The translations under genes and the position numbers were made by a program. 49,306 nucleotides of DNA from Deltaproteobacteria bacterium (lineage in GTDB: Bacteria > Desulfobacterota > Syntrophobacteria > BM002): contig JAJDNT010000239.1 of assembly GCA_022340515.1 (NCBI GenBank), positions 1 through 49,306 of the forward strand, read 5' to 3'. Below are positions 24,156 through 47,240 of this stretch, one piece after another; position 1 is the stretch's first letter; every line of letters starts with the position of its first letter. The notes beneath the pieces were generated by a model. That model did no database searches. It was not told where the DNA came from and saw only the letters and a list, made by a program, of their open reading frames with translations.

Positions 24156-25037
24156 TCATAGTGGCTCCACTATGTACCACTGGTCCGGATAGCGGCGGAT
24201 GTATTGTTCAAAAACCGTGGCAACCTGCCGCAAGTTGTGTTGCAGTGCCTTTTTACGGTCAGGGCCGTATTTTAAATCCAAGGGGGGTTCGACGACACCA
24301 CGATAGCGTCCCGGAGCCTCCATGACGGAAAAGGCAGGCAGAATCGGTGCACGAGCGGCCATTGCCAACAGCACCGGGCCAACTGGCAGCCGCACTGGAC
24401 GATTGAAAAAAGTTGTAACCTCTGCTCTATCGGTAGCAAAAACCCTGTCACCCAAAACAGCCACAACCTCATTTCGATTCAGAGCCTTAACCAAATCAAT
24501 GGCGCCGTATGCTGACTCCTCTACTTCGATGATCCTTATGCCATGACGCATTCTCATCACATTGATCAGAGCGTTGGTAAATGTGGTGTTGTGCTTTAAG
24601 GCCACAACGTTGACCGGATAGCCCATGGCCCGAAGTCCCAGGCCTCCAATTTCCCAATGGCCCAGATGAGCAGTGAGGAGCACCGCCCCTCTCCCTCTCT
24701 GCAAGGCTGCATCGATATGGTGGTGCCCCTGGTAAAGTTGAGCAAATGCCTGGCTTTCTTCCAAAGTCATGTTCAGAAGACGAAAAAAATCGACAACGTA
24801 GATTCCGTAGTTCTGGAAGAATCTCCACAGGAGCAACTTTCTATTAGCTGGTGGGTTGTAGCCGTTAAAGATAAGGTCAAAATTGTGCGAAACATGCCGC
24901 CGGTCTCGAGGCGAAAAAAGATAGGCAAGCGCGGCAACCAATCTTGCCAAACCATAGGTAACAGCTGCAGGCAGTAAACTGACGGTCTTCAGAGCTTGCC
25001 TATACAAAAATGGTTTATCTAGGAAATGTTCACGCAT
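24156..25037 (-). CDS. LpxL/HtrB-family (lysophospholipid) acyltransferase
   Basis: GRGAVLLTAHLGHWE (HX4E), LGDR, IRRYPDQWY. Confidence 0.88.
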   Translation of the reverse strand: MREHFLDKPFLYRQALKTVSLLPAAVTYGLARLVAALAYLFSPRDRRHVSHNFDLIFNGYNPPANRKLLLWRFFQNYGIYVVDFFRLLNMTLEESQAFAQLYQGHHHIDAALQRGRGAVLLTAHLGHWEIGGLGLRAMGYPVNVVALKHNTTFTNALINVMRMRHGIRIIEVEESAYGAIDLVKALNRNEVVAVLGDRVFATDRAEVTTFFNRPVRLPVGPVLLAMAARAPILPAFSVMEAPGRYRGVVEPPLDLKYGPDRKKALQHNLRQVATVFEQYIRRYPDQWYIVEPL

Positions 25038-25181
25038 GGGCTTTCACCGTCTCCCTAGATAGTGGAAACTATTTTCTCTGTCAACATCGCTCTCGCTATA
25101 AGTAATAATTAGACCATATTAAGGTTATTTCTTCAGGAATTTCTCCAATAACGTTTGCCTGTGGCTGTAGATTCAGCTCTT

Positions 25182-25265
25182 AGAGAGTTGTGGGTGATGG
25201 GGTCCCCCACTCCGCCGCAGGCGGAAAGTGGCCCTGGCCATACCAAAGAGTCACCAGACTCTTTC
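25182..25265. repeat. Imperfect stem-loop or MITE-like element with a 15-nt hairpin at its apex, in a divergent promoter region
   Basis: AGAGTTGTGGGTGA...TCACCAGACTCT ends; CCACT/AGTGG flank TCCGCCGCAGGCGGA (25211-25225). Confidence 0.45.
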
Positions 25266-25329
25266 TTACCGCGATGATTTCAACTATAATACCGAGGCTC
25301 ACTATCTATCTCTACAGTGGAATGTGAAA

Positions 25330-26649
25330 ATGTCATTGAAAATATTGCTGATCTCACCCATAGGACTCAAGAAGATTCTGGGGGCGGACTTTTTCTTCAA
25401 ACTGCCCTTTCTGGGCCTGCCTACCGTTGCTGCCCATACGCCGCCGGACTGTGAAGTCAAAATGGTTGACGAGCGCATTAGTCCGGTAGATTTCACCGAT
25501 GATGCCGATCTAATTGGGATCTCGGTAATGACTCCTCTCGCTACCAGAGCATATGAGGTAGCCGATGAGTTCAAACGGCGGGGGAAGACTGTGGTAATGG
25601 GCGGCATGCATGTCTCGGCCCTTCCAGAGGAGGCTTTAGAGCATTGCGATGCCGTGGCGATTGGAGAAGGTGAAAAAGTTTGGCCCCAGATGGTGGAAGA
25701 CTTCAAGCGGGGGGAACTCAAGGAGGTTTACCGGGCCGATAAATTATTGGATCTGGGTGAGTCGCTGCCTCCCCGATGGGATATTATCGACAAGACCCTG
25801 TATAGCCCTGTTGACTTCATCGAAACTACCAGGGGATGTCCAATCAATTGCAACTTCTGCGCGGTCACTCAGTTTTACGGGGCCAAATACCGCATCAAAC
25901 CCATCCATCTTGTTGAGGAGATGGTGGCAAGGGTGAGGCCGGTGGATAAAATCTTCGCCCTCAAGAACCTTATATTTTTTGTTGATGATAATATAGTTGC
26001 CAATAGGAAACACTGCATGGCGCTGTTGAAAATGCTGAAGTCCTATAACATTCAGTGGCTAGGCCAGGCTTCGATTTCGGTTGCAAAGGATGATGAACTC
26101 CTAAAGTTGATGTCCGAAACCAGATGTCTCGGGCTACTAATAGGTATGGAGAGCCTTTCTGAGGATACTCTGGCTGAGTGTGGGAAACGGATAAACAAAC
26201 CGGCCGAATATTTGGAGGCCGTGGCCAATTTGCACCGTTATGGCATAGGGGTAAAGGCCACATTTATTATTGGCTTTGACAACGATGATATCTTGGTATT
26301 CCCCAAAATGGCGAGATTCATTAATAGATCTAACTTTGACAGTGTATATTTCAGTATTCTAACGCCCTACCCGGGTACCCGGCTTTTTGAGAAGATGGAA
26401 AGTGAGGGCCGACTGCTGCATAAGGATTGGGAGAGGTATGACACTGCTCATGTTGTCTTCCGTCCCAGGAAAATGACTGTCGAGCAGCTCGAAGAGGGAT
26501 TTGTTTGGCTTTACAAGAGAGCCCTTTCAATGAAATCAATAGTGTTGCGGCTGGCCCGAGCCAGAACAAATCCTCAGTTTTTTCTTCCCGACAACTTGGC
26601 CTTTAGATCGTGCCTGTTCAAAATGCTGCGAGGAAATAAGAAAATTTAA
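25330..26649 (+). CDS. Cobalamin-binding radical SAM protein
   Basis: N-terminal B12-binding domain (KILLISP, GGMHVS, GEGE); TRGCPINCNFC; DDN, GMES, TPYPGT. Probable ATG 25330. Confidence 0.88.
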   Translation: MSLKILLISPIGLKKILGADFFFKLPFLGLPTVAAHTPPDCEVKMVDERISPVDFTDDADLIGISVMTPLATRAYEVADEFKRRGKTVVMGGMHVSALPEEALEHCDAVAIGEGEKVWPQMVEDFKRGELKEVYRADKLLDLGESLPPRWDIIDKTLYSPVDFIETTRGCPINCNFCAVTQFYGAKYRIKPIHLVEEMVARVRPVDKIFALKNLIFFVDDNIVANRKHCMALLKMLKSYNIQWLGQASISVAKDDELLKLMSETRCLGLLIGMESLSEDTLAECGKRINKPAEYLEAVANLHRYGIGVKATFIIGFDNDDILVFPKMARFINRSNFDSVYFSILTPYPGTRLFEKMESEGRLLHKDWERYDTAHVVFRPRKMTVEQLEEGFVWLYKRALSMKSIVLRLARARTNPQFFLPDNLAFRSCLFKMLRGNKKI

Positions 26650-26743
26650 GATTGACCCCGTCGGGTTAAGATTGCAGATTGATAGTGGCAAGTCGTATAC
26701 TCCAATCTAAAATCTGCAGTCTAAAATCTAAAATTTGTAGTCT
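26647..26743. repeat. Inverted pair of heptamer arrays (AGATTGC ... AATCTAA)
   Basis: taagattgcagattga followed by caatctaaaatctgcagtctaaaatctaaaattt. Confidence 0.65.
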
Positions 26744-26773
26744 TTAATACTTCAACCGAATGCGCGACTCTGC

Positions 26774-28205: not shown

Positions 28206-28285
28206 CTTCCAACCAAAACGCAACCATCGTGGTTTAGAAGAGAATGGTTTTATTGTGGCCCTAACCAGAACTGAGTGAGGTAGAA

Positions 28286-28663
28286 ATGTCCAGGTTCACT
28301 TTAATCACTTTGCTGGGTTAATTTTTACTCTTGAGCTCTTTTGGCTGTGTTGGCAGGGAAGGTATTATTCGTCTCAACACTGATCCACCAGGGGCTACAT
28401 ACTATGTGGATGGAATTGAAAAAGGAAGAACGCCAGCGGAGTTTACCTGGGATTCCAATTGGCCTTGCTTGCTCGAGATCAGGAAAGAAGGCTATTATAC
28501 CGAGCAGGAACTCCTCAACAAATATTGGGTTTGGTATCAAGAGAGCAAAGGAAACTATCGTACGATTCGGGTTGGAGAGGCTAAGAAGAAATGGACAGTG
28601 ATCATTGACCGGAAGTTGAAAGCTGCACCATCAGGAGTAGCTTCTGAAACCGCAGGTCAGTAA
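28286..28663 (+). pseudogene. PEGA-domain lipoprotein with an in-frame TAA in its signal peptide
   Basis: RBS GAGG, ATG 28286, MSRFTLITLLG*FLLLSSFG-C (stop at 28319-28321), then PEGA motif TDPPGATYYVDGIEKGRTP...IRKEGY. Confidence 0.65.
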
Positions 28664-28746
28664 GGAAATTCAACTTTTCACAGAGCTTGGTGATTGGAGG
28701 ACTAAATAGGGTAAAGTAAATAATTACGATTAGACACCTGGAGCGA

Positions 28747-30969
28747 GTGCAGTTGACTTTATCAGAGAATTCACAATTTGGCTGCGATTTCGAGGGGCAT
28801 AGAGCTTCTAAAATTCAGTCTGCCCCTGGGGCGCCGGTCGTTGGCATACCCCGGGGTCTTCTCTATTTCAAATACCAACCTCTGTGGGCAACGTTTTTCT
28901 CTCACCTGGGGATCCAGGTCCTGGTCTCAGAACCGACCAAAAGGTCCAGTTTCGAGACAGCTCAAAGTCTCACCCGCAGCGATCTTTGCCTGCCTGTAAA
29001 AGTCTTTCTCGAGCATGTTTACAGATTAAAAGATCAGGTGGACTATCTCCTACTGCCGCGGCTTATCAGCGTAAGTCCCGATGCTTACATGTGTCCCAAG
29101 ATCCTGGGATTGACTGATATGGCCCGGAATGTCTTTAGCGATCTGCCTAACCTTCTGACCCCACGGGTAAATGCTAAACTTCCAAAGCCGGAGGGATTTG
29201 CCGAGGCATGTTTCGAGTTAGGACTTCATTTTAACCGCAGCAGATCACAGGTGGGGATTGCCTGGGAGGCTGCCTGGGAAGCTCAAGGGAAATACGAGCA
29301 AAGGTTGCTAAGATATCCCCTGGATGAAGCTTTAAAACCGTGGGACAGAGCCTTTGCTCAAAAAAACGGCAACTCTGAATTTGCGCCTCGATACCGGGTA
29401 GCAGTTATTGGTCGACCTTACATCTCCTTTGATAGTGCCCTCAGTCATGACCTGCTAAATTTGCTTCAGCGGCAGGCTGTTGAGATTGTTACCCCGGAAT
29501 CCCTGCCCAAGGAGGTCATAGAAAAAGAGAGTGAGAGACTGTCGAAAAAAGTCTACTGGCAATTGGGAAGGGAGCTGGTGGCCGCGGCTTTGCACTACAT
29601 GAGAGATGAAGATGTGGATGGCATCATCAATGTTTCCAGCTTTGGCTGTGGCCAAGATTCCTTCACCAACGCCCTGGTGGAATATTTCGTCAGCAAACAC
29701 TCAGACAAACCCATTCTTAGCCTGGTCATGGATGAGCACACCGCCGATGGTGGGTTAAATACCCGAGTAGAGGCATTTCTGGACATGATGGACCAGAGGA
29801 AAAAGAATGGGAACTCGGGATGGAAAGGGTGGGGGAAGAGAGAAGGTTTGCATCCGACGGGCGGGATTGTAAAAAATCCTAAAGCCGAAAAAATGCATCT
29901 AACCATACCGCACATGGGACATCTCCACGTGGGTTTCGAACAAGTGTTCAGAAATCTGGGTGTCCACATTACCATGCCACCCCGTCCCAATAAAGAAGCC
30001 TTGATGCTGGGTACGCGCTATTCTCCTGAATGCGCCTGTCTGCCATTTAAACTGAACCTTGGTAATATGATCCAGGCGTTAAATCAAGGCGCTACCGATA
30101 TTATGATGCCTGGCGGCTTTGGCCCCTGCCGTTTTGGCTACTACAGCGTGATCCAGGAACAGATCCTAAGAGATCTGGGCTACGAGTTCAGGATGGGTCG
30201 TGCGGATGATCCGGACAGTCTCCGAGACATGTTGGACATGGTAAAGAGGATCGCCGGCCTCAATACCAAGTGGGATTCCTACAAAGTCTTTTTCTTCATT
30301 CTTCATCGCCTTGCCCTGGTGGACTGGGCTTTACGTCGTTCCCACTGGTTGCGGCCTAGGGAGGTTGAGAAACATGCCACTGACCGGGCCCTGCGTCGCT
30401 GTCTCAAAATCATTGAGGAGACAAGTCGATTCCGTGACCTTTGGTCTGCAAAAAGGAAAGTGCGTCAGGTACTGAGTACAGTGGCCTGCCACCGTAAGCG
30501 GTCGATTCTCCGAGTGGGAATTGTGGGTGAGATTTTTATGGTGCTGGAGCATTATGCCAATATGAATGTGGAGGAAAGGCTGGGTGAGATGGGAGTTGAG
30601 GTGCATCGTGGCCTTTGGCTCAGTGACTGGCTAAATGACCGTTATCGGTTTAAGCTTTTCCGACGAAACCAGTACAAGTGGTCCCTCCGTCAGGCCAGAC
30701 CATACCTTTCTGAACCTAGTGGAGGTGAAAGTGTAAAATCGGTGGGAAAATCAGTGAGTTTTGCCAAAAGGGGTTTTGACGGTATCGTTCACCTCATGCC
30801 CTTTACCTGTATGCCGGAGCTGGTAGCTCAGACGATCTTGGCTAAGGTGTCTAGGGACTACAACATTCCTGTCCTCACTCTCATCTTCGATGAGCACACT
30901 TCGCCGGGAGGAGTGCAAACCAGGTTGGAGGCCTTTGTGGATCTGATAAACCGCAAAAGAACCTTATAG
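28747..30969 (+). CDS. Fused DUF2229 + 2-hydroxyacyl-CoA dehydratase-like reductase component (PlsA C-terminal/PlsR-like)
   Basis: VGIPRGLL...W..FF..LG, CLPVK, SFGCG, DEHT...TRVEAF; second half CLPFK, GPCRFGYY, VGIVGEIF, PFTCMP, DEHT...TRLEAF. Start uncertain. Confidence 0.8.
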   Translation: MQLTLSENSQFGCDFEGHRASKIQSAPGAPVVGIPRGLLYFKYQPLWATFFSHLGIQVLVSEPTKRSSFETAQSLTRSDLCLPVKVFLEHVYRLKDQVDYLLLPRLISVSPDAYMCPKILGLTDMARNVFSDLPNLLTPRVNAKLPKPEGFAEACFELGLHFNRSRSQVGIAWEAAWEAQGKYEQRLLRYPLDEALKPWDRAFAQKNGNSEFAPRYRVAVIGRPYISFDSALSHDLLNLLQRQAVEIVTPESLPKEVIEKESERLSKKVYWQLGRELVAAALHYMRDEDVDGIINVSSFGCGQDSFTNALVEYFVSKHSDKPILSLVMDEHTADGGLNTRVEAFLDMMDQRKKNGNSGWKGWGKREGLHPTGGIVKNPKAEKMHLTIPHMGHLHVGFEQVFRNLGVHITMPPRPNKEALMLGTRYSPECACLPFKLNLGNMIQALNQGATDIMMPGGFGPCRFGYYSVIQEQILRDLGYEFRMGRADDPDSLRDMLDMVKRIAGLNTKWDSYKVFFFILHRLALVDWALRRSHWLRPREVEKHATDRALRRCLKIIEETSRFRDLWSAKRKVRQVLSTVACHRKRSILRVGIVGEIFMVLEHYANMNVEERLGEMGVEVHRGLWLSDWLNDRYRFKLFRRNQYKWSLRQARPYLSEPSGGESVKSVGKSVSFAKRGFDGIVHLMPFTCMPELVAQTILAKVSRDYNIPVLTLIFDEHTSPGGVQTRLEAFVDLINRKRTL

Positions 30970-31938
30970 ATCGCCAGTTTCCCATTTGCCGCAACGATCC
31001 CCCCAGCGCACCAAACGTTCCTGACCTGGGGCCACAGGAATCTTCACTTCCATCACTTCACAGCCGTTGGAACACCCCTCACATTCAAAGCCACTAAGTT
31101 CGTATGGTATCCCCCCAACTTCAAAACCACGGAAGCGGGTTTTCTCTATTGAACTCACCGCTTCCTTAGCTAAAAGTGCAGCACCGATGGCCCCCATTAC
31201 CTCAAAGTCCGGGGGGACTAGTAATTCTTTTCCCAGAACTTGCTCAAAGGCAGACCGCATGCCCACATTGGCAGCCACGCCCCCCTGAAAGAGGATGGGG
31301 CGACGGAGTTCCTGGCTCTTGACCAGATTGTTCAAGTAATTGCGAACCAAGGCCTGGCAAAGTCCGGCTATGATGTCTTCCACACTGTGTCCCATTTGTT
31401 GTTTGTGGATCATGTCCGACTCCGCGAAGACCGTGCAACGGCTGGCAATTTTTACCGGCTTTTTGGCCTTGAGAGCATGTTCTCCAAAGGATTCGATAGG
31501 GATTCCCAGGCGATAAGCCTGTTGATCCAGAAATGAACCAGTGCCGGCGGCGCAGACTGTGTTCATGGCAAAGTCGATGACAGTGGAGTTTCGCAAAATT
31601 ATGCTTTTGGAGTCCTGGCCACCAATCTCGATAACCGTCTGGGTCTCCGGCTCATGGTGAAGAGCTGCCACGGCATGGGCGGTAATCTCGTTTTTAATCA
31701 CATCGGCACCTATTAAAATGCCGGCTAGATAACGGCCACTGCCGGTAGTACCCACACCAGTAACAGTTAGCTCGCCGTCCATTTGCTCAGCCAACGCCAT
31801 TAGGCCGGTTTGCATCGCCTTCATGGGCTGGCCGTGGGTACGTAAATATTGCTTGTGGAGCACTCTGCCGTTGTCATCCAAAAGCACTAAATTTGTACTA
31901 ATAGATCCCACGTCGACACCAAGATAAGTGGCTTTCAT
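30964..31938 (-). CDS. ATP-dependent CoA-substrate-specific enzyme activase (HgdC/BcrAD-BadFG family)
   Basis: LGVDVGSISTN, TTGSGR, EIGGQDSK, MNTVCAAGTGSFL, CTVFAESD, C-terminal CEGCSNGC. Confidence 0.92.
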   Translation of the reverse strand: MKATYLGVDVGSISTNLVLLDDNGRVLHKQYLRTHGQPMKAMQTGLMALAEQMDGELTVTGVGTTGSGRYLAGILIGADVIKNEITAHAVAALHHEPETQTVIEIGGQDSKSIILRNSTVIDFAMNTVCAAGTGSFLDQQAYRLGIPIESFGEHALKAKKPVKIASRCTVFAESDMIHKQQMGHSVEDIIAGLCQALVRNYLNNLVKSQELRRPILFQGGVAANVGMRSAFEQVLGKELLVPPDFEVMGAIGAALLAKEAVSSIEKTRFRGFEVGGIPYELSGFECEGCSNGCEVMEVKIPVAPGQERLVRWGDRCGKWETGDL

Positions 31939-31952
31939 GACCAGATCCTTAA

Positions 31953-32190
31953 TTGTTTGTCCGTTGTCAGTTGTTCAAATCGTTCAATCGTTCGCCTTCG
32001 GTGAAGTCGTTCAAACCGTAAAGACCTAAGTAGCCAGTAGTCAGTAGCCGGTAGCCAGCAAGGAAAAAATATAGTTCCATTTCATATCTCCTGGCTCCTG
32101 ACTCCTGAATTCTCCCTCCTTTACCTTATGCCTTGCGCCCTGCGCCTTGTGCCTCTTACTCCATGCCCTATGCTCTATGCTCTGTGCGCT
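31953..32190. repeat. Composite block of several 7-9 nt tandem repeat types
   Basis: GTCCGTT, CGTTCAA, GTAGCCA, CTCCTGA, TGCGCCT and TATGCTC arrays in series. Confidence 0.8.
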
Positions 32191-34729
32191 TGTCGTCAAT
32201 CCAGGCTAAGACCGCAGGCAAAAGAAAAAGAGCGGCGAAAAGGCAGGTAAGAATGCCCAAAGCTGTAACCCAGCCGATGCTGCGCAGGCCAGGATAGTGA
32301 GAACTGACTAGAGAACCGAAGCCGATGATTGTGGTCAGAGAGGTGAGCACGATGGCGCGACCAATGTGGTTGAGGACCATGGCAAGGTTCTCTTTGGAGT
32401 TTTGGCGCCAGCGATGAACAATGTGGATACCATCATCTATCCCTATTCCCACAATCAGCGGCAGGACAATGAAATTGGCGTAGTTGAATTGAATTGACAA
32501 CAATGCCATCAACCCCAACATGGACACTATGCCGCCCATCAGGGGAACAGCAGCTAGTGCCGCAGGAAAGGGGTGTCGAAAAGCCAAGAGCAAGGCTAGA
32601 GCAATAGCCACTGCCGCTAAAATTAAAGAGTCGCCAAGGTCGTGCCACACTAGCCCTTTGAGATGATCCGTCAAAATGGGCCAGCCTGCGAGTCGCCATT
32701 CGCTGCCATCGAGGCCACTTTCCCTTGCGGTCATTTTAATATCTTTGTCTAAACTGTCCAGATCATCTTTGTCCCATAAACCTTCCCGAGGGAAGACAAA
32801 AGTAAACAGTTTTCGGTTTGGACCTCGATTTACCAGAAAAGTATCCAGCAACTGTTCGAGGTTCGCATTTTTGAAGCTCTCTCGATCCACCCTGCCTTTT
32901 GGGTGCACCAGTGTTCTTAGCCAGTTCAAGTATGAGGTGTACTCGGGGAGGAACTGAAAGCCGTTTTCCTCCAGCGCCTTTTTAAATGTGGTCTCGATGC
33001 GGTCGGGGTTGAGTTGGCTAGCATGACGCTGATAAAAATCTAGTGCTAACCGCTGATTTTCAGGCGATGGCCAGTAGGCGAGGATGCTGCGATAATGAGA
33101 CAACTTCTCTGCATCTTGAAGTTTAGCCAAAGCCTTGTCAAGTTTCCAGGCTCGGTTCAGCAGAGTTGCATCATCTTTACCTTCCATTACCAAGAGAACA
33201 TAACCGCTCGCGCCCCCCATGATGGCCTCCACCTCTTTTTCCACCGCCATTCGACCAGCCTCTTTAGGTCGCAAAGTTCTTAGATCGTCTTCAAAGGAAA
33301 TGTTTAAGGCTGCAATAGCTAAAGCTGCAAGTAAAAAGAGGCTGAGGCATACAACCCGGCGGGGATGTTTTACCACAGGCGATATGAGATAATTGAGGCC
33401 AAAGTTAGGAATGGGCCTGGCAGATGCCGATGGCACCGTGTTACCCTGCTGCCAAGCGAGGAGGGCAGGCAAAACCACTAGCATGGCAGTTAGGCAGGCA
33501 AGGATGCCGATTCCGGTGATGATCCCCAGTTCCTGGAACCCTCTGAAAGAGGAAATACCAAGAGCGAAAAAGGCTGCTGCCGTTGTCAGTCCGCCCATGA
33601 GGATGGCTCCACCACTTTGAGTCAAGGCAAGGTGTAGGGCCCTGGCATGATCCTGACTCTGACTGGCACCTGCGTATAGATTGAGAAGGTGTATGGCAAA
33701 GTCGATACCAAGCCCGAGTAATACAGCAGCAAAAGCGCCGGTGAGTATGTTGACATGACCATAGATGAGCTGCAAAAGGCCAAAGGTCCAGATGAGAGCC
33801 ATGGCCAGTGGCAAGAGCATTAAAAAGAGGAAACGTAATTTACGGAAAACGAGAAAAAACAAAATGTTAACCCCAAGAAATGAAATGAGCAGGCTGCTTT
33901 GCAGGTCTCTGCGGGTTAAGGCTTCATCCTCCTGGGCAATAGCATAGCCACCAGCAAAAGTGATTTCGGGTGCGGCTCCAGCCGTGGGGTGAGATTTGCG
34001 CCAAGTGCTGATGGCCTTTTCCCCTGCCGCTGAAGCTGCTGCCATTAGTCTCTTGGTATAGGTGATATCTCGGGCTGATTGTTTAGGTCTGATGAAGACC
34101 AGAAGATGACTTCGGGTCTTATCCACCAAGTAGCCATCCTCGAGCTCAAGGCCAGCAAATGACTGCTGGGCAAACCAGCGGGAAAGCCATAAATGTCTCA
34201 GTCCCAGAGGGTCCTTAAGGATTAGGTCCCTGACACCACTCTGCATTGGCATCAGTAAAAGCCGCTTGTTTTCTTTTATTTGACGGGAAATGGAGGAGTC
34301 GCTCAAGCGCTCGAGCAAATCAAACCGTTCCTGTTCTGACAGGAAGAGGCCAGCATTGGGCAGTAAGACTTCGGCAAAGAACTTCCTTTGCTGAGTGGTA
34401 ACCTTGGCTTCCAAGTTGTCTATACCAGGAAAGGATGCCATTTCTTCAACGAAGCCATCGACGATTTGCTTGGCGCTTTCCAATTCTCCAGGTTCAACCA
34501 CACTCACAACCACCACAAGCACGTCCTGAGGACCGGCGTCCATCAGATCTGCAAGCAATTTTTTGGCCTCACTCTCCTTGGCAGGCATGAGAGAATCCAG
34601 GCTTGAGTCCATGCGAAGTTGAGTGATGAGTAGAATAGATAAGATGGTGCAAACTGAGGCAATCAGAAGAATCAACCTGTGGTATTGGACAATGCGATCT
34701 GCTAAAAGGGTGAAAAAGGGCTTGGTCAT
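32168..34729 (-). CDS. MMPL/RND-family lipid exporter
   Basis: Two TM bundles with GLGIDFAIH and GIGIDDGIH; LTTAAAF / LTTIIGF; 853 aa. Confidence 0.9.
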   Translation of the reverse strand: MTKPFFTLLADRIVQYHRLILLIASVCTILSILLITQLRMDSSLDSLMPAKESEAKKLLADLMDAGPQDVLVVVVSVVEPGELESAKQIVDGFVEEMASFPGIDNLEAKVTTQQRKFFAEVLLPNAGLFLSEQERFDLLERLSDSSISRQIKENKRLLLMPMQSGVRDLILKDPLGLRHLWLSRWFAQQSFAGLELEDGYLVDKTRSHLLVFIRPKQSARDITYTKRLMAAASAAGEKAISTWRKSHPTAGAAPEITFAGGYAIAQEDEALTRRDLQSSLLISFLGVNILFFLVFRKLRFLFLMLLPLAMALIWTFGLLQLIYGHVNILTGAFAAVLLGLGIDFAIHLLNLYAGASQSQDHARALHLALTQSGGAILMGGLTTAAAFFALGISSFRGFQELGIITGIGILACLTAMLVVLPALLAWQQGNTVPSASARPIPNFGLNYLISPVVKHPRRVVCLSLFLLAALAIAALNISFEDDLRTLRPKEAGRMAVEKEVEAIMGGASGYVLLVMEGKDDATLLNRAWKLDKALAKLQDAEKLSHYRSILAYWPSPENQRLALDFYQRHASQLNPDRIETTFKKALEENGFQFLPEYTSYLNWLRTLVHPKGRVDRESFKNANLEQLLDTFLVNRGPNRKLFTFVFPREGLWDKDDLDSLDKDIKMTARESGLDGSEWRLAGWPILTDHLKGLVWHDLGDSLILAAVAIALALLLAFRHPFPAALAAVPLMGGIVSMLGLMALLSIQFNYANFIVLPLIVGIGIDDGIHIVHRWRQNSKENLAMVLNHIGRAIVLTSLTTIIGFGSLVSSHYPGLRSIGWVTALGILTCLFAALFLLPAVLAWIDDKRTEHRA

Positions 34730-34836
34730 GACTGTTCAGTTTTAGTGTCCATAAAAAAACAAAGCAGGCTATTTGATGCCTGCTCGACAAGTAATTTTAC
34801 TCATATTTCTTGCAAGACAGCCAGGTAAGTTCAATC

Positions 34837-37874: not shown

Positions 37875-38066
37875 GATTTCCCTCCAAGAATCCGCAGTTC
37901 ACTCGTGAATTTCTATCCTGATTCCTTTTCTCTCTTCTTATTACCACTTGAGATTTCAGAAGCAAGCACAAAATTAAGACGTCGAGAAGGGAACCGCTCT
38001 ATCATAATCTCCTTCTGCCCGAACCGTAGCCTCCAGGACGCCGGGGTAAGGGAAGGAAATCATCAA

Positions 38067-40093: not shown

Positions 40094-40107
40094 GATCCTG
40101 CATTCCT

Positions 40108-40247: not shown

Positions 40248-40982
40248 ATGAGATTCAAAGATAAAATTGCTCTCATCACCGGTGGAATTCGTGGAATTGG
40301 TGCCGCCATTGCTAAAAGATTTCTTCAAGAGGCTGCCCAGGTTGTGGTAACCTACTCCCAGGATCAAGATCAAGCGCGGAAATTTCAAGACGAACTGGGC
40401 GTTGCCAAGGTCAAGGTTCACCAGGCGGATGCCTCTGACTTTGACCAGATGAAAGCTTTGTTCGACCGGATTATTGAGCAGTTTGGTCGTCTGGATATTC
40501 TGGTCAATAACGCTGGCATAAGGCGTGACAATTTAGTAATGTTCATGTCAGAGGCAGAATGGCATGAGGTGCTGCGGGTGAACCTGCAGGGGACTTTTAC
40601 CTGTTGTAAGCTGGCACTAAAACCCATGATAGCGCAACGGTGGGGACGGATGATCAACATCGTCTCTCCCAGCGGAATCATGGGCCGTGAGGGCCAGGCC
40701 AATTACGCCGCCGCCAAAGGGGGAGTGGCGAGTTTCACCAAGTCTCTGGCAAGAGAGGTGGGCAAACTCGGTATCACGGTAAATGCCGTTTCACCCGGGG
40801 TAATAGACACTGATATGACGCGGTCTTTACCTGAAAAAATCTTGGCCGAACTCAAGCAGTCAATTCCCCTGGGCCATTTTGGCCAACCGGAAGATGTAAG
40901 CGGAACGATTTTATTCTTGGCCTCAGAGGAGGCATCTTACATTACCGGTCAAGTTATAAGCGTTGATGGAGGTCTGACCTAA
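40248..40982 (+). CDS. fabG: 3-oxoacyl-ACP reductase
   Basis: TGGIRGIG, NNAGIRRD, GQANYAAAK, VSPGVIDTDM. Confidence 0.9.
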   Translation: MRFKDKIALITGGIRGIGAAIAKRFLQEAAQVVVTYSQDQDQARKFQDELGVAKVKVHQADASDFDQMKALFDRIIEQFGRLDILVNNAGIRRDNLVMFMSEAEWHEVLRVNLQGTFTCCKLALKPMIAQRWGRMINIVSPSGIMGREGQANYAAAKGGVASFTKSLAREVGKLGITVNAVSPGVIDTDMTRSLPEKILAELKQSIPLGHFGQPEDVSGTILFLASEEASYITGQVISVDGGLT

Positions 40983-41039
40983 ATCGCTAATTGGAGCAAA
41001 TCTTGCAAGGCCTGATCATGAAAAAATCATCCAAGTAGT

Positions 41040-41160
41040 GCTCATCCGAAAACGGCCGTTTTCCGATGAGCGCGTTCAGTTATCAGCGCTCAGCCATCGG
41101 CAACATAAATATAAATACAAAATATTAAGCTGACGGCTGATTGCTGAATGCTGACAGCTC
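41040..41160. repeat. 32-nt palindrome followed by inverted heptamer arrays (TCAGC / GCTGA)
   Basis: GCTCATCCGAAAACGGCCGTTTTCCGATGAGC (41040-41071); tcagttatcagcgctcagcc ... gctgacggctgattgctgaatgctgacagc. Confidence 0.7.
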
Positions 41161-41212
41161 CATGCGGGAATCTCGGATTTCCGGATGGAAAGTAACCAAG
41201 GAGGAACAACCA

Positions 41213-41515
41213 TTGCAGACCCCCCTGCTGGAGCGAAACAATCTGATCGTAAATCTAAAGGAACTCATAGTGCGAACTCTGCGGTTGGAAGATGTCAGCC
41301 CCGAGGATATTGCTGATGCAGAACCTTTGTTTGGTGAAGGCCTTGGCCTCGACTCTATTGATGCCTTGGAGTTGGTGGTGGCCATCGAGAGGGAATATCA
41401 GGTTGAGATCCCGGACGCCGAAGTGGGGCGAAGGGCTTTTGCCTCGGTCAACGCCCTAGGAGATTTCATTTTGGAAAAGAGCTCAGCTCAGAAGGCTTCA
41501 GATGCGGTGGGTTGA
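41213..41515 (+). CDS. Acyl carrier protein (aryl-polyene/ladderane-cluster type)
   Basis: PLFGEGLGLDSIDALEL phosphopantetheine motif; TTG 41213 after AAGGAGG. Confidence 0.9.
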   Translation: MQTPLLERNNLIVNLKELIVRTLRLEDVSPEDIADAEPLFGEGLGLDSIDALELVVAIEREYQVEIPDAEVGRRAFASVNALGDFILEKSSAQKASDAVG

Positions 41516-41927
41516 GACCACGACCACAGTCAGATTCAACGAGGTGGATCAATGGGGCATTACCTGGTACGGTCACTACTTTGCTTGGTTTGAACTGGCT
41601 CGAATGAAAGTATTGGAGAAGTTTTCCCTCCTGCCAGAACAATTCACCGCTTTAGGATACATTGCTCCGGTGGTGAGTGCTCAGTGCGAATTCAAGAAAC
41701 CCGCCCGCACTAATGACATCATCACAATTCAAACACACCTTCTCAAACCACAGACAGCATCTCTGACATTTCGATTCGAAATTTTGTTGCAGAATGGCGG
41801 ATCCTTACTGGCCAAGGGTGAAACGCTTCAAGTCTTGCAAAAACTTGATGGCACCGTAATATACAAACTCACCGGTACCATCAAGGACCGAGTTGAGTCC
41901 ATGGTCCGATACTTCTGGCCGGACTAA
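41502..41927 (+). CDS. Hot-dog fold acyl-CoA/ACP thioesterase (4HBT/YbgC-like)
   Basis: VRFNEVDQWGITWYGHYFAWFE. Confidence 0.85.
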   Translation: MRWVETTTTVRFNEVDQWGITWYGHYFAWFELARMKVLEKFSLLPEQFTALGYIAPVVSAQCEFKKPARTNDIITIQTHLLKPQTASLTFRFEILLQNGGSLLAKGETLQVLQKLDGTVIYKLTGTIKDRVESMVRYFWPD

Positions 41928-41983
41928 AATAAAAATTGCTCAGACCTGGCCCCATTCTTCTGGCGAATCACGGTTTTAGAGAT

Positions 41984-42421
41984 ATGTCACTTTCCCATGA
42001 GCAGGTTCAGGACTTGCTGCCCCACAGATACCCTTTTCTCTTTGTCGACAAAGTTACCACCCTGAAATCTGGTCATAATGTTGAAGGCACATTTCGGGTC
42101 ATGACCGACCATCCATTCATCAGTAGAGTTGGAGGGGTTTCGGTTTTTCCAGCCACTTTGGTGATTGAAGCCCTAGGGCAGCTGGCAGCACTCTGTATCC
42201 GTTATCCTCAGCTAGCCCAAGAGGTTCGGCAACGGGCCCAAGGATTTCTCGTCCGCATTGACGAGTGTTCATTTTTGCACCCGGTATATGCAGAAGAAGA
42301 GTTGCTGCTCGCAGCCAGTTTGGTTAAACAATTCTCTGCTCTGTATAAATTTGACGCCAGGGGGTTTGTTGATCATAGAATGGTGGTAAAGGCTTCTTTG
42401 ACCCTTTACCTGGAGTTCTGA
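41984..42421 (+). CDS. FabZ/FabA-like hot-dog dehydratase (lacks the canonical catalytic His)
   Basis: LLPHRYPFLFVD; PATLVIEALGQ; no GHFP motif. Probable ATG 41984. Confidence 0.75.
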   Translation: MSLSHEQVQDLLPHRYPFLFVDKVTTLKSGHNVEGTFRVMTDHPFISRVGGVSVFPATLVIEALGQLAALCIRYPQLAQEVRQRAQGFLVRIDECSFLHPVYAEEELLLAASLVKQFSALYKFDARGFVDHRMVVKASLTLYLEF

Positions 42422-42422
42422 A

Positions 42423-43151
42423 ATGGTGGATCGCAGTGCGGTCTCTCTTAGATTTTGTGCTCTTATTCCAGCTTACAACCTTGCTAGCACCATCTCGGAG
42501 GTGGTTTGTAAGACTAGTAAACACTTAGGCGAAATTCTGGTAGTGGACGACGGTTCCCAGGATGACACTGCCCGTCTGGCCAAAGAAAGTGGGGCCAAAG
42601 TTCTCAGAATTGCCAAAAACCAGGGGAAAGGTTGGGCCTTGCGCTGCGGGTTCAAGCATCTGCTGCAGAAGCCTTGGGAGGGTATCATTACGCTGGACGG
42701 GGACCTACAACATGACCCGGTGGAAATCCCCAATCTGATTAAGGAGCATGACAAATCAGGGTCACAGATCGTTATCGGCTCTAGAATGGTGCAAACAGAG
42801 AGGATGCCCTGGATAAGATATTGGACCAATAGAATTGGAGTCTATTGCATCTCATGGGCGGTTGGACAGCCTCTGACAGACACCCAAAGTGGATTTCGGC
42901 TCTATCGCAGAGAAGTTCTCGAAACCATTCCACTGTGGACCACCCGTTACGATACCGAGACAGAAATATTGCTCAAGGCCGGTTTGCTGGGAATGCAGGT
43001 AACCTCTATCCCCATAAAGACAATTTATTACGAGGATGAGCAAAATAGCTCTTCTTTTAGGCCCTTTCCGGACACCTTTCTCATCTGTATGGTATTTCTC
43101 AAAAGCCTTTTTTGGAGACGAGGATGGTATCTTAGGAATTTTGTCATATGA
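42423..43151 (+). CDS. Glycosyltransferase family 2
   Basis: IPAYN, VVDDGS, NQGKG, DGDLQH, DTQSGFR. Confidence 0.9.
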   Translation: MVDRSAVSLRFCALIPAYNLASTISEVVCKTSKHLGEILVVDDGSQDDTARLAKESGAKVLRIAKNQGKGWALRCGFKHLLQKPWEGIITLDGDLQHDPVEIPNLIKEHDKSGSQIVIGSRMVQTERMPWIRYWTNRIGVYCISWAVGQPLTDTQSGFRLYRREVLETIPLWTTRYDTETEILLKAGLLGMQVTSIPIKTIYYEDEQNSSSFRPFPDTFLICMVFLKSLFWRRGWYLRNFVI

Positions 43152-43244
43152 CTGTCGCCTAGCGCAAAGAGCATAGCGCATAGCGTAAGCTGGAGCAATT
43201 AATGATTGGATTACGCAGTTTGTCGACCACCGGGATAAGATAGT

Positions 43245-44465
43245 ATGGGTGAAATCGGGGTAATCGTAACTGGCATTGGAATCATCTGTGCTCTGGGAGA
43301 GCAGAAAGAAGCGTTTTGGAATGGTCTCAGCCAGGGAAAGTGTGGACTTGGCGAGATTGACCTTTTTGATGTATCCGGCTACCGCAGTCGTGTGGGAGGG
43401 CAGGTGAGGAATGTTGATTTCTCTTCCAGGCTTTCCCTACATGAAAGTCGCCGCTTGGGCCGGTGTGATAAGTTGGGGTTGTGGGCCGCCCAAGAGGCTC
43501 TGAAGGAAGCAAAGATCATGGAGCGCGATCTGCCGCCGGACCGAGTTGCTGTTGTTATGGGCGCCGGTGCCGGCGGTGTTTTTGAGGCAGAGCATTACCG
43601 CCGCCAGCTCTATGAGAGACGTCCCCGTCCCCGACCTTCTTTGCTTATGCCTTTTCCTGCCTGCAATCTTACCGATGCTATTGGAAATCTCTACGGTTTT
43701 TCCGGAGTCCGCTCCACTATCGCCACAGCTTGTTCTTCCAGCGCTACCGCCATAGGCTACGGGGCGGATCTCATTCGCTCAGCAAAGGCTGACGTGGTTA
43801 TTGCGGGAGGAGCTGAGTCCCTCTCGGAGCTCACTTTTTCTGGCTTTAATGCCCTACGTTCGGTGGACCGGAAGACTTGCCGACCTTTTGATCGGAATCG
43901 GGAGGGATTGGTACTAGGTGAGAGTGGCAGTATCTTGGTTCTTGAGTCTAAAAGGCTTGCAGCGGCCCACGGGGTATCCGGATATGCCGAGGTCCTGGGA
44001 TATGGCATTTGCGCCGACGCTTACCACATGACCTCTCCAGATAGACAAGGGGAAGGAGCGCAGAGAAGCATGTTTAATGGACTTGGCGCTGCTGGCATAC
44101 CGGCGGAAGCGGTGGATTATATCAACGCCCACGGCACTGGAACAGTGATAAACGACAAAGTGGAAACCCTGGCGATCAAAAGGCTTTTCGGGGAAAGATC
44201 CCACTCGCTCCCCATAAGCTCGGTGAAGTCCGCCTTGGGACACTGCCTTGGGGCAGCCGGAGCGCTGGAGGCCATTGCCTCCATTTTGGCCCTTTATCAT
44301 GGGGTAGTTCCTCCAACATTGAACTATGAGGAACCTGATCCGGACTGCGATTTGGACTATGTACCCAATGAGCCTAGGGTGGCCAACATTGGGGTGGCCA
44401 TGTCAAACTCCTTTGCTTTCGGTGGTAACAACACCACCCTGGTGTTTGCAAGGACTGATCTATAA
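43245..44465 (+). CDS. fabF: Beta-ketoacyl-ACP synthase (FabF-type, catalytic)
   Basis: Intact Cys-His-His triad: TACSSS, INAHGTGT, GHCLGAAG; SNSFAFGG. Confidence 0.9.
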   Translation: MGEIGVIVTGIGIICALGEQKEAFWNGLSQGKCGLGEIDLFDVSGYRSRVGGQVRNVDFSSRLSLHESRRLGRCDKLGLWAAQEALKEAKIMERDLPPDRVAVVMGAGAGGVFEAEHYRRQLYERRPRPRPSLLMPFPACNLTDAIGNLYGFSGVRSTIATACSSSATAIGYGADLIRSAKADVVIAGGAESLSELTFSGFNALRSVDRKTCRPFDRNREGLVLGESGSILVLESKRLAAAHGVSGYAEVLGYGICADAYHMTSPDRQGEGAQRSMFNGLGAAGIPAEAVDYINAHGTGTVINDKVETLAIKRLFGERSHSLPISSVKSALGHCLGAAGALEAIASILALYHGVVPPTLNYEEPDPDCDLDYVPNEPRVANIGVAMSNSFAFGGNNTTLVFARTDL

Positions 44466-44479
44466 AATCTAAAAAAGTC

Positions 44480-45715
44480 ATGGCAAGAATACCAATAAGC
44501 ATAACCGGCTTGGGCATCATAAACGGGCTGGGTATTGGAAAATCGACATTTTGGCACGAGCTGGTTAGGGGTAAATCTGGTATAGCACCGATTATGGGTT
44601 TCGATACTGGCAAATATGTTTGCAATCTTGGGGCTGAGATACCCAATTTCAATGCCAAGGATTTTATGGAACCTCGCTTTTATCGCAGACTAAGTCGCCA
44701 ATCTCGCCTTGCGGTTGCCGCGAGCATCGAAGCCATAAATGACAGTGGCTTGGAAATCTCGGAGCTGAACCGCCAGCGGATCGGAGTGGTCTTTGGAACC
44801 GCCTTTGGTAGTACGGAGCAAACGGATGCGTTTTTTGTAAGCCTTTTGGATCATGGTCCACAGGCGGCTGACCCAATACTTTTTCCAGATACGGTGCCTA
44901 ACGCTCCTGCCAGCCATGTCGCCATGTATCATGGGATACAAGGTCCCAATAGCACCTTTTGCCAAAATCATCTCTCTGGTGAATGTGCCCTGGCTTACGG
45001 AATAGCATTGTTGGAGCAGGATAAAGCAGATGTTGTGCTGGTGGGAGGTGTTGACGAACTATCGAACATCCTATTTCACAGCCTCGACTCGGTTGGTGCT
45101 TTGAAGCCCATCAAGGAGCGAGAGACACTCCAGCCTAGCCAATTTCCCACAGGTAGAGGATTCATTGTCGGCGAAGGGGTTACCTGCTTGGTGTTGGAGC
45201 GGGCGGAGTTTGCGGAGAGGGCAGAGAAAAAGAGCTATGGAACTATTTTGTCCCTGACGCTAACCAGTGGAATCGTGGCTCAGGCGCACTATGAACGAGA
45301 TGGTGGGGCCATGGCGCAAGGGATGCGGGTCGCATTGAAGGAGGCCAAGATCGCAGTGGAAGAGATTGGTATTATTGGGCTGGCCGCTAATGGGGTTGAT
45401 GAGCTTGAGGAAGGAGAAACTAAGGCTTTGGAGGAGGTTTTTGGTTATAGGTGGCATGCGATCCCTAGGCTACCAGTTCGTTATTTCGTCGGTGAATTCG
45501 GTAGTGCAGGCCTCCTGAACGTGGCAACTATTTTACTTTCCTTGGCCGAGGGAACTATACCACCGACCGTTCGAGGATCCGATCTGACCGGTTCTTTTGG
45601 TAAAGCTCAAAGATTTGCACTTGCGACTGATGAAACTATTGTTGCTGGAATGGCCATAGGTTCTACTTTTGGCGGCGGGAGCGCTTGTACGATTGTTGCG
45701 AGGCAACCGGAATGA
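44480..45715 (+). CDS. Non-catalytic ketosynthase homolog (chain-length-factor-like)
   Basis: KS fold (ITGLG, FPDTVPNAPASH, GEG), but catalytic positions replaced (QNHLSG, GLAANG, GEFG). Confidence 0.85.
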   Translation: MARIPISITGLGIINGLGIGKSTFWHELVRGKSGIAPIMGFDTGKYVCNLGAEIPNFNAKDFMEPRFYRRLSRQSRLAVAASIEAINDSGLEISELNRQRIGVVFGTAFGSTEQTDAFFVSLLDHGPQAADPILFPDTVPNAPASHVAMYHGIQGPNSTFCQNHLSGECALAYGIALLEQDKADVVLVGGVDELSNILFHSLDSVGALKPIKERETLQPSQFPTGRGFIVGEGVTCLVLERAEFAERAEKKSYGTILSLTLTSGIVAQAHYERDGGAMAQGMRVALKEAKIAVEEIGIIGLAANGVDELEEGETKALEEVFGYRWHAIPRLPVRYFVGEFGSAGLLNVATILLSLAEGTIPPTVRGSDLTGSFGKAQRFALATDETIVAGMAIGSTFGGGSACTIVARQPE

Positions 45716-45825
45716 TGGAAAGGTGGAATAATGGAATGATGGGTCGAGAGGAATTAGACCAATGAGAAAAGACTTCATCTGCTTTAAGTCGCCAGAATTC
45801 CAATATTCCATTATTCCAACATTCC
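45709..45825. repeat. Inverted pair of 8-nt arrays (GGAATGAT ... ATTATTCC)
   Basis: ggaatgatggaaaggtggaataatggaatgatgg ... ttccaatattccattattccaacattcc. Confidence 0.8.
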
Positions 45826-45860
45826 TGCTAGGGCAAAACAGGTGACCCAAAGGCGATCTG

Positions 45861-47240
45861 ATGCGCATACTCCTGATTTCACCAAACACCGAAATGCTAC
45901 CCGACCCAGTCTTCCCTCTTGGACTGGCCTTTTTGGGCGGTGCGCTCGAGCTCAGCGCCCACGAGTACCAGGTCCTTGATCTTTGCTTCGTTGAGGACTA
46001 CGGAGAAGCTTTGGAGCGGGCTGTAGCTAATTTTAGCCCTGAAGTAATAGGACTTTCCTTGCGCAATGTAGATAATGTGGCCTATCCCAATACCCATTCC
46101 TATCTGCCTTTTTACCGGAAGGTGGTTTCACATTTGCGAAAGCTTACCACCGCACCCATAGTTCTGGGGGGCTCGGGATTCAGCCTTATGCCGGGACAAA
46201 TATTGAGAGATCTGGAAGCAGACTATGGTATCGTGGGTGAAGGTGAGATTTCTCTTATTCTTTTCCTTGACCAATTGGAGCGTGGCCAGTCTATCTATCG
46301 GGTGCCCGGCCTCATTACAGCCCATTCCAACAAATCCTCACAAGCAATTTCACCACAGCGTTTTTCCATTCAGGATATCATTATGCCTAGCAGGGAAAAG
46401 CTTGCCAATGAAGCTTACCTTCGTTTCGGCGGCATGGGAAACGTCCAAACCAAGAGAGGTTGTGGCTTTTCATGTGTCTACTGTACTTACCCTTTGATTG
46501 AGGGAAAAGAGATTCGGTTGCGATCACCTAAGCAAGTTGGAGAGGAAATCCAGCACCTTTATGATCAGGGTGTCGACAATGTTTTCGTTGTTGATAATGT
46601 GTTCAATTTCCCCCCGCACCACGCCCAATCAATATGCAAGGAAATTTTACAAAGGAACTTGGAGGTGAAGTGGAGCTGCTACCTCAATCCACAGTTTGTA
46701 ACCGAGTCTTTGCTGTCTCTAATGAAAGAGTCTGGTTGTACCGGAGTAGAGTTTGGCACTGACGCCGGCTCCGACTCGGTTTTGAAGAGATTGGGAAAGT
46801 CATTTACTACAGAGGAGGTGCGGCGAGCATCGGAACTCTGCCACAAAGTAGGGCTATCCTCATGCCACTCCTTGGTTTTTGGTGGTCCGGGGGAAAGCAA
46901 GGAAACCCTCCAAGAAACCTTTGCTCTCATGGACGAGGTCTCGCCTACTGCAGTAATTGCCATGGTGGGTATAAGGCTTTTTCCAGGTACAAAACTTGCG
47001 GATTTCGCCTCCCCCGTAGATTTGATTATCGAAGACGACTCAATGTTAAAACCGACTTTCTATCTGGCTCAGTCAGTACGTCCTTTCGTCCTCGATATTT
47101 TGTACGAGCATGTGAAGGAGAACAAGAACTGGATTTTACCGGGGTCAAACGTAAATATCGACAGAAGACTACAAGAAAAACTGCGACGCTTTGGTCTCAA
47201 GGGACCTCTGTGGGAACATATGCAAGTAAGGCGAAAGTAA
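45861..47240 (+). CDS. Lipid-biosynthesis cobalamin-binding radical SAM protein (ladderane-cluster type)
   Basis: MRILLISPNTEMLPDPVFPLGL, SLRNVDN, QTKRGCGFSCVYCTYP, DNVFNFP, EFGTDA, FGGPGE. Confidence 0.85.
   Translation: MRILLISPNTEMLPDPVFPLGLAFLGGALELSAHEYQVLDLCFVEDYGEALERAVANFSPEVIGLSLRNVDNVAYPNTHSYLPFYRKVVSHLRKLTTAPIVLGGSGFSLMPGQILRDLEADYGIVGEGEISLILFLDQLERGQSIYRVPGLITAHSNKSSQAISPQRFSIQDIIMPSREKLANEAYLRFGGMGNVQTKRGCGFSCVYCTYPLIEGKEIRLRSPKQVGEEIQHLYDQGVDNVFVVDNVFNFPPHHAQSICKEILQRNLEVKWSCYLNPQFVTESLLSLMKESGCTGVEFGTDAGSDSVLKRLGKSFTTEEVRRASELCHKVGLSSCHSLVFGGPGESKETLQETFALMDEVSPTAVIAMVGIRLFPGTKLADFASPVDLIIEDDSMLKPTFYLAQSVRPFVLDILYEHVKENKNWILPGSNVNIDRRLQEKLRRFGLKGPLWEHMQVRRK

Follow-up and report, generated by a model that had tools for sequence, protein, structure and literature searches.

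The stretch of DNA analysed here (the window; 49,306 nt, contig JAJDNT010000239.1 of assembly GCA_022340515.1) belongs to a metagenome-assembled genome of 342 contigs that is 87% complete, and whose closest relatives in public databases carry the labels Syntrophobacteria or Deltaproteobacteria. Amid a set of lipid genes it carries two genes encoded tail-to-tail, a fused iron-sulfur reductase and a stand-alone activase, referred to below as RED and ACT. RED is an open reading frame (ORF) of 740 amino acids (aa) with a GTG start and ACT an ORF of 324 aa with an ATG start, laid out as follows.

28747..30969, plus strand: RED, fused two-module iron-sulfur reductase (Pfam, module hidden Markov models (HMMs), alignment, structure model)
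28789-29844, plus strand: Red1 module, about residues 15-366 (module HMMs)
29848-30966, plus strand: Red2 module, about residues 368-740 (module HMMs)
30964..31938, minus strand: ACT, stand-alone activase (Pfam, TIGR00241, alignment)
31153-31938, minus strand: ASKHA ATPase of ACT, residues 1-262, with cluster cysteines C129 and C168
30967-31137, minus strand: four-cysteine tail of ACT, residues 268-324, with C286, C289, C293 and C316 (alignment)
30964..30969, both strands: overlapping stop codons of RED and ACT, TTATAG

The 6-bp overlap is made up of the RED stop codon (TAG, 30967-30969) and the ACT stop codon (TAA, the complement of 30964-30966). Both genes are under purifying selection, with ratios of nonsynonymous to synonymous substitution (dN/dS) against orthologues of 0.08-0.12 for RED (four pairs) and 0.04-0.06 for ACT (five pairs, a sixth being saturated), hence neither ORF is a product of chance. 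The true start of the 740-aa frame is uncertain, as residues 1-25 show no conservation beyond the genus and have a low pLDDT. A first-pass annotation, made from the sequence alone, had described a plus-strand fusion of two reductase-like halves, each ending in a DE(H)...TRxEAF motif, and the TTATAG overlap with a minus-strand activase; the fusion was confirmed by the ORF and Pfam, the motifs by alignment and the overlap by the sequence itself.

Two Pfam families, DUF2229 (PF09989, E 1.8e-54) and the HGD-D tail (PF06050, E 5.2e-14), each matched RED in two stretches. Across 15 aligned homologues the cysteines C81, C116 and C301 of Red1 and C431, C461 and C688 of Red2 are invariant, as are the two tails (15/15), D329-E330-H331...T339-R340-x-E342-A343-F344 in Red1 and D715-E716...T725-R726-x-E728-A729-F730 in Red2. 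In the AlphaFold model (pLDDT 82.6, pTM 0.84) the halves are joined by a low-confidence linker, residues 357-380. Foldseek searches with this model returned only chains of 2-hydroxyacyl-CoA dehydratases (HAD), the double-cubane cluster protein (DCCP) or benzoyl-CoA reductases (BCR) in the top 19 ranks (E 3.7e-7 to 2.8e-4, target-normalised TM 0.35-0.58), including 2-hydroxyisocaproyl-CoA dehydratase, DCCP and the benzoyl-CoA reductase BzdNO/MbdON, at 10-15% identity. Compared by sequence with solved structures, RED gave marginal DCCP matches at best (E 0.48 and 0.77).

ACT matched BcrAD_BadFG in Pfam (E 6.2e-50) and the acyl-CoA dehydratase activase domain TIGR00241 in NCBIfam (205.7 bits, cut-off 125.4). 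Its cluster ligands C129 and C168 are invariant in 18/18 sequences, and so is the module formed by C286, C289, C293 and C316 (18/18 activases, six phyla). The activase had been described as ending in CxxCxNxC; the motif is present (C286-x2-C289-x-N291-x-C293), though it lies 31 residues before the C-terminus and the module continues to C316. The closest solved chains are MbdQ, HgdC, HadI and DCCP-R (E 2e-45 to 6e-28), activators of 243-276 aa that cover only ACT residues 5-267 and do not possess the four-cysteine tail. Judged by sequence and fold, RED and ACT together can be securely placed in the HAD/BCR/DCCP superfamily as a single low-potential iron-sulfur reductase driven by ATP.

Structure prediction of the complex, a check proposed with the first-pass annotation, paired Red1 (residues 26-356) with ACT at a score of 0.61, compared with 0.02 for the best of three controls; a score of 0.61 is reached by 58/80 solved complexes and 2/110 mismatched pairs. 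The runs agreed in at least 86% of contacts, with a partner pLDDT of at least 80. The predicted interface sets Red1 residues 312-354, the TRxEAF helix, against ACT residues 66-67, 82-86, 119-127 and 207-209, with the loops 82-86 and 119-127 adjoining the cluster ligand C129. Such docking would give a reason for the conserved TRxEAF tails, which are likely the activase docking site. As similar complexes have been solved (7YYL, 9GAI), the prediction may reflect likeness to these rather than binding by this particular copy.

Among characterised systems, sequence comparison places the lipid-ester reductases PlsA/PlsR and Ger closest to the RED/ACT machinery. The host genome itself also encodes two canonical PlsA-PlsR operons.

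G000:C201:42036-46574 (L011:6088-10578): canonical operon 1, a protein of ~1047 aa with two activase domains and DUF2229, then a PlsR-like protein of ~447 aa
end of G000:C47 plus G000:C183 (L013, L012): canonical operon 2, the contig ends having 18 residues in common at 94% identity

In BLASTP comparisons with RED, the PlsA-like proteins aligned over their reductase part with residues 24-360 (26-28% identity, E 1e-27 to 1e-34), and the PlsR-like ones with residues 375-731 (23%, E 1e-15 to 1e-22). ACT was closer to the second activase domain of PlsA (42-51% identity) than to the first (32-35%), and the four-cysteine tail follows the same pattern, being present in 20/20 split activases shown and 8/9 canonical second activase domains but in 0/9 first ones. 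All six cluster cysteines are kept in canonical proteins (22/22 rows for Red1, 20/21 for Red2) as in relatives of RED with separate activases (75/75 and 82-83/83). On this comparison RED/ACT holds every part of the PlsA/PlsR/Ger machine except the first activase domain. The proposal that its domain types are those of PlsA/PlsR/Ger was therefore borne out, by Pfam, by BLASTP colinearity and by the domain description in PMC13159169. Immediately upstream of the canonical PlsA-like gene (L011:2536-5735) are two regulator genes. The product of one combines a CDP-alcohol phosphatidyltransferase domain with PAS and histidine-kinase domains, and the other encodes a sigma-54-dependent response regulator; the pair could regulate ether-lipid synthesis in a lipid-linked manner.

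The differences lie in how the parts are divided. Ger (T. maritima Tmari_0479; D. alkenivorans SHJ90043; PMC13159169, PMC11150832) contains BcrAD_BadFG, DUF2229 and HGD-D as RED/ACT does, and canonical proteins of Ger architecture resemble RED/ACT in module order, in the six cluster cysteines and in the four-cysteine module after the activase. However, Ger is a single polypeptide of ~1400 aa with two fused activase domains, whereas RED/ACT is a DHDH fusion with one separate activase, and the activity of Ger is demonstrated while that of RED/ACT is putative. PMC13159169 states that BBD, meaning two activase domains and DUF2229 in one polypeptide, is conserved in all alkyl-ether producers. RED/ACT lacks this arrangement, its single activase domain being encoded by a separate, oppositely oriented gene, and does have the Red1-then-Red2 order with three cysteines each, colinear with the host PlsA and PlsR. 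PlsA-PlsR (C. perfringens CPE1194/1195; Jackson et al. 2021, as described in citing papers) consists of two proteins, the second being the second reductase module, so that the cut falls between Red1 and Red2, whereas in RED/ACT it falls between activase and Red1; PlsA and PlsR are also co-directional, and RED and ACT convergent. Furthermore, RED keeps TRxEAF on Red2, while canonical PlsR-like proteins have lost this tail, the likely activase docking site. The docking prediction fits this asymmetry, as a symmetric stand-alone activase would meet two docking tails and a fused double activase only one. HadBC/HadI, HgdAB/HgdC, DCCP/DCCP-R and class I benzoyl-CoA reductases resemble RED/ACT in the folds of catalytic subunit and activator and, in principle, in using ATP to drive electron injection, but they act on CoA esters or small molecules, show 10-15% identity to RED, and possess neither DUF2229 nor the four-cysteine tail of the activator.

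The first-pass annotation had seen in RED/ACT a differently partitioned Pls/Ger enzyme, which does not hold, as the pair belongs to a large separate family usually encoded by three genes. A scan of one genome per species confirmed 588 relatives, and the best 80 of these, from Bacillota, Chloroflexota, Nitrospirota, Thermotogota, Actinomycetota, Ignavibacteriota and Asgard archaea, were examined with the module HMMs to give the following layouts.

Red1 and Red2 as separate genes: 63/80 loci
Red1 and Red2 fused: 13/80 loci
Red1/Red2 partial or other: 4/80 loci
ACT directly downstream, same strand: 62/80 loci
ACT upstream, same strand: 3/80 loci
ACT convergent: 6/80 loci
no ACT within 1.5 kb: 9/80 loci

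ACT is thus found within 1.5 kb of the Red genes in 71/80 loci (in canonical PlsA it is fused to them). Because Red1 and Red2 are separate in 63 loci and ACT is mostly co-directional (65/80), the normal form of the family is a set of three co-directional genes, like hgdC/A/B, and the form in the window arose by two local changes, in which Red1 became joined to Red2 and the activase gene was turned round. By tree, motifs and activase type, the three-gene sets ('acyl-CoA dehydratase activase-related protein') are the family of RED/ACT.

In the Red1 tree (97 rows, LG+C20 PMSF) a branch of SH-aLRT 98 parted all 22 fused BBD-type rows from the window, and the Red2 tree (104 rows, LG+G4) showed the same split between 21 canonical rows and the window at SH-aLRT 100; both were quick searches without bootstraps. 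The 22 BBD rows comprise 19 from Desulfobacterota (the two of the host included), Clostridium niameyense, Thermoanaerobacterium thermosulfurigenes and one Petrotogaceae. A 1421-aa fused homologue used as protein query gave no match named D. alkenivorans among the 120 matches listed. On these trees the split family stands as the sister group of the fused PlsA/PlsR/Ger-type enzymes. RED/ACT bears its marks throughout: its place in the tree, TRxEAF on both halves, K118, K435, and a stand-alone activase with the four-cysteine tail. Ger-type proteins, beyond branches of support 98-100, differ from it at K118 and K435.

Outside the lipid-linked clade described below, the commonest neighbours of the family (68 loci) were sporulation genes (sigma factor, SpoIIAB-like, SpoVAC/AD/AE, SpoVAF), followed by LysA-like genes, each found in 13-19 of the 68 loci, which come from related Bacillota and are not independent. 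In these spore-forming Bacillota (L019-L093, e.g. L073:2314-3867 and L025:6173-7222) Red1-Red2-Act stands directly after spoVA genes (SpoVAC, SpoVAD, SpoVAE, SpoVAF/GerA-like) and before LysA-like. Three loci (L038:2940-6515, L071:9986-11028, L076:9983-10875) have Red1 divided over two or three ORFs, and L038 has a 502-aa ORF between Red1 and Red2; frameshifts, insertions or assembly errors may be the cause.

The convergent layout is real, is kept in the clade and is derived, a lineage-specific inversion. It is confined to the Syntrophobacteria clade of the window, which accounts for the six convergent loci and for the five of the 80 loci that combine convergence with a fused reductase. The 6-bp overlap of stop codons recurs in L014 (CTATAG) and L015 (TTATAG), and in L016-L018 the stops are 6-21 nt apart; there is no room for a terminator between them. 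Convergent partners were described at the outset as unusual, which the count of 6/80 supports, and as possibly allowing independent or antisense control, for which neither scans for signals nor unstranded RNA contigs gave evidence. Scans of 24800-40400 remained at background level, with 19 promoter-like sites (14.4 +/- 3.7 expected) and 22 terminator-like sites (18.0 +/- 5.4 expected), and are uninformative on how the converging genes are controlled. The best terminator-like hairpin of the region (34762-34785, minus strand, eight pairs, T-rich tail) lies between the NHL/CsgG-like and MMPL genes, hence MMPL and ACT may form their own transcription unit, in a scan that was at background overall.

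RED and ACT each close a run of genes that meet at the overlap. RED is the last of a plus-strand run of a B12 radical S-adenosylmethionine (SAM) enzyme, SRPBCC, methyltransferase, PEGA and RED, and ACT the last of a minus-strand run of ATP-grasp, small exporter, SPASM radical SAM, NHL/CsgG-like, MMPL and ACT. To the left of the RED run lie the LpxL-like acyltransferase and LolA-like, FabD-like and Omp85 proteins, and to the right of the ACT run a part resembling fatty acid synthesis (FAS-like), with an acyl carrier protein (ACP) and a pair of ketosynthases (KS).

24156..25037, minus strand: LpxL-like (Lip_A_acyltrans) acyltransferase (PF03279, E 2.2e-36)
25228..26649, plus strand: B12-binding radical SAM, first gene of the run (Pfam; below every NCBIfam cut-off)
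26774-27409, plus strand: SRPBCC/START-like protein (Pfam)
27324-28205, plus strand: SAM methyltransferase (Pfam)
28331-28663, plus strand: PEGA-domain ORF (Pfam)
32168-34729, minus strand: MMPL/HpnN-like exporter
34837-36495, minus strand: NHL/CsgG-like protein
36492-37874, minus strand: radical SAM/SPASM
38067-38612, minus strand: small export protein
38716-39939, minus strand: ATP-grasp
40248..47240, plus strand: FAS-like part, with FabG, ACP (41141-41515), hotdog, FabA-like, GT2, KS pair and TIGR04072

The TIGR04072 B12 radical SAM enzyme scored 402 bits (cut-off 360). The FAS-like part resembles clusters compared between anammox bacteria and Desulfotalea in PMC2649909; the 2009 ladderane-cluster paper contains no occurrence of an activase (0 mentions).

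That the pair sits inside a lipid cluster, as first proposed, was borne out, and the linkage to lipid genes is kept in several lineages. The order of the minus-strand run from ATP-grasp to ACT is conserved in L014-L017 and L026, and relatives with 49-57% Red2 identity keep parts of the island set beside their reductase genes. L029 and L134 have a methyltransferase and a B12 radical SAM gene beside Red1-Red2, with an LpxL-like match only in L029. L046 and L136 are compact loci of ACT, four Red genes, LpxL-like, SRPBCC and B12 radical SAM, with SPASM beside ACT in L136. The LpxL-like acyltransferase hence adjoins Red genes in three loci (L029, L046, L136) and B12 radical SAM homologues (42-45% identity) in four (L029, L046, L134, L136), while SRPBCC is kept in L046 and L136 and the methyltransferase in L029 and L134. 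An MMPL gene is found near the trio in L043, L135 and L137. Three Nitrospirota loci carry Red1-Red2-ACT with a LolA-like gene beside it or ~7 kb downstream and KS gene(s), one of them also with B12 radical SAM. In the Red1 tree the 11 lipid-linked rows, which come from Desulfobacterota, Syntrophorhabdus-like bacteria and Nitrospirota, group in a single clade (SH-aLRT 99) that lies within Bacillota sequences. This clade is rare, with Red2 of at least 49% identity in 6/301 evenly drawn genomes of the phylum. The four Red genes of the Syntrophorhabdus-like loci (L046:5192-9316, L136:7876-12057) are ordered Red2', Red1', Red1, Red2 behind a single activase, which may serve two reductase pairs.

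Within the genus the lipid island is accessory and is present or absent as a unit. RED was found at 79% identity or more in 12/17 other genomes of the genus, and was not found in four genomes of other genera of the family nor in 19 of the same class. TIGR04072 was above its cut-off in 11 of 41 related genomes, all 11 of which have RED, and neither RED nor an above-cut-off TIGR04072 was found in G008, which is 96% complete. Since DNA matches of G008, G011 and G013, three genomes of the same genus in which RED was not found, stop at window positions ~14,000-14,600, the island starts at ~14,000; it spans at least 35 kb (to 49306), its right end lying beyond the window. Assembled metatranscriptome contigs from two libraries of one study, which carry no information on strand, ends or level, are 93-97% identical to the window and cover RED, ACT, MMPL and B12 radical SAM genes, a weak hint of expression that could also stem from DNA carry-over. 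One of them, 318 nt long with 13 mismatches, extends across the junction of RED and ACT (30796-31113), which is not proof of a single transcript.

We favour, at a probability of about 0.42, the reading that RED/ACT is a late-stage reductase of the ester formed by the neighbouring LpxL-like acyltransferase in the island lipid, because late-stage lipid genes show the most faithful linkage to the reductase, lipid esters are what its nearest characterised relatives reduce, and the pair comes and goes with the island. The lipid would be assembled by the LpxL-like acyltransferase. ACT, which we infer to be a homodimer, probably with one bridging [4Fe-4S] cluster on C129 and C168, would dock on the conserved C-terminal TRxEAF helix, hydrolyse ATP and inject an electron into RED, where each half would offer one three-cysteine cluster site. 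RED may then reduce the acyl ester to an alkenyl or alkyl ether, and the resulting ether lipid would be exported by the LolA-like and MMPL proteins.

Several observations weigh against ester reduction by RED/ACT. The two canonical PlsA-PlsR operons could make the ether lipids of the host. The split family is separate, in both trees, from every sampled fused PlsA/Ger-type protein, and the trees left out the validated PlsA and Ger sequences themselves. Residues near the clusters differ, with K118 in 74/75 split rows and L/M/Y/F in canonical rows, and K435 in 81/83 split rows where canonical rows have Q in 17/21; R726, in the TRxEAF tail of Red2, is present in 83/83 split rows and in 3/21 canonical rows. 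Because of these cluster-proximal residues and the Red2 tail, the chemistry of the split family may differ from that of Pls/Ger. No study of the split family, and hence no member with assayed activity, was found in the literature searched, and elsewhere the family occurs in unrelated contexts such as the spoVA operon. Fervidicola ferrireducens has two split sets and no fused form was found in a search of its genome; Table 1 of PMC13274423 lists only iso-diabolic acids and no ether products for this strain, a weak negative.

The main rival is that the same machinery performs other radical chemistry on the island lipid, with a target that is not an ester, such as dehydration of a hydroxyacyl group by ketyl-type chemistry, or reduction of a chain, conjugated or unsaturated, that the KS pair, FabA-like protein and radical SAM enzymes would produce. 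We consider this somewhat unlikely, although the superfamily is diverse, with dehydratases, arene reductases and DCCP as the closest folds, the island encodes ACP, FabG, the KS pair, FabA-like and TIGR04072, and the split family is distinct, without an assayed member and unlike canonical Pls/Ger-type proteins close to the clusters. However, what different lineages retain nearest to RED are late-stage genes (acyltransferase, SRPBCC, exporter, LolA-like), the ACP and KS genes lie at a distance of at least 10 kb in the window and do not occur in the compact loci L046 and L136, and the nearest sequence relatives are lipid-ester reductases rather than CoA- or ACP-dependent enzymes. A general plasmalogen/ether-lipid synthase acting on ordinary membrane phospholipids, its position in the island being incidental, would suit the homology to PlsA/PlsR, the many unrelated gene contexts of the family and its spread over Bacillota, Chloroflexota, Thermotogota and Asgard archaea, as expected of a housekeeping lipid role. 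This is distinctly unlikely, as RED accompanies the island in 11/11 TIGR04072-positive genomes and G008 has neither, its link to acyltransferase and B12 radical SAM genes is found repeatedly in a supported clade that spans phyla, and two canonical operons are already in the genome. Finally, the fold and the activator would also be those of a catabolic 2-hydroxyacyl-CoA dehydratase-like enzyme. We regard this as very improbable, since solved HAD or DCCP chains are only marginally similar in sequence (best E 0.48, compared with 1.8e-54 for DUF2229) and Pfam detected no CoA-transferase, acyl-CoA dehydrogenase or electron-transferring flavoprotein (ETF) in the island or in ten of the most frequent neighbour families of the 68 non-lipid loci. 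A clade remote from Pls/Ger and tied to catabolic acyl-CoA dehydration had been named at the outset as evidence against a Pls/Ger-like role; the clade is indeed distinct from Pls/Ger, and no catabolic tie was found among the neighbour families put through Pfam.

Bacterial ether lipids serve as markers of environment and past climate, and knowledge of the organisms and enzymes that make them is only partial. Screens for such genes are built on fused PlsA/Ger proteins and have set aside the very common three-component sister family, PMC13274423 calling the role of 'additional PlsA homologs' without activation domain unclear. The window and its relatives provide one of the clearest functional contexts for the split family, a conserved lipid-tailoring and export module, and a concrete gene set with which a candidate lipid chemistry of uncultured anaerobes can be tested. 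If the split family makes ether bonds, estimates of ether-lipid-capable anaerobes would change; otherwise the family points to radical chemistry of a new kind on lipids. At the speculative end, the split reductase and activase, LpxL-like, SRPBCC, B12 radical SAM, methyltransferase, SPASM and MMPL/LolA-like pair might together be a dedicated pathway sending a methyl-branched, ether-linked lipid to the outer membrane, an idea we hold at long odds. Were it true, such a pathway would sit in uncultured anaerobic Desulfobacterota, Syntrophorhabdus-like bacteria and Nitrospirota, and non-isoprenoid branched ether lipids of sediments and soils would have a source in a second enzyme family, one not scored by published Ger/PlsA screens.

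The window also contains short intergenic stretches of about 185-235 bp (8125-8310, 16520-16743, 2076-2311, 6847-7060 and 8864-9099), which recur many times at 81-94% identity in the same-genus genomes G002, G011 and G014 and fewer times in G008, and look like a family of small dispersed repeats of MITE or REP type.

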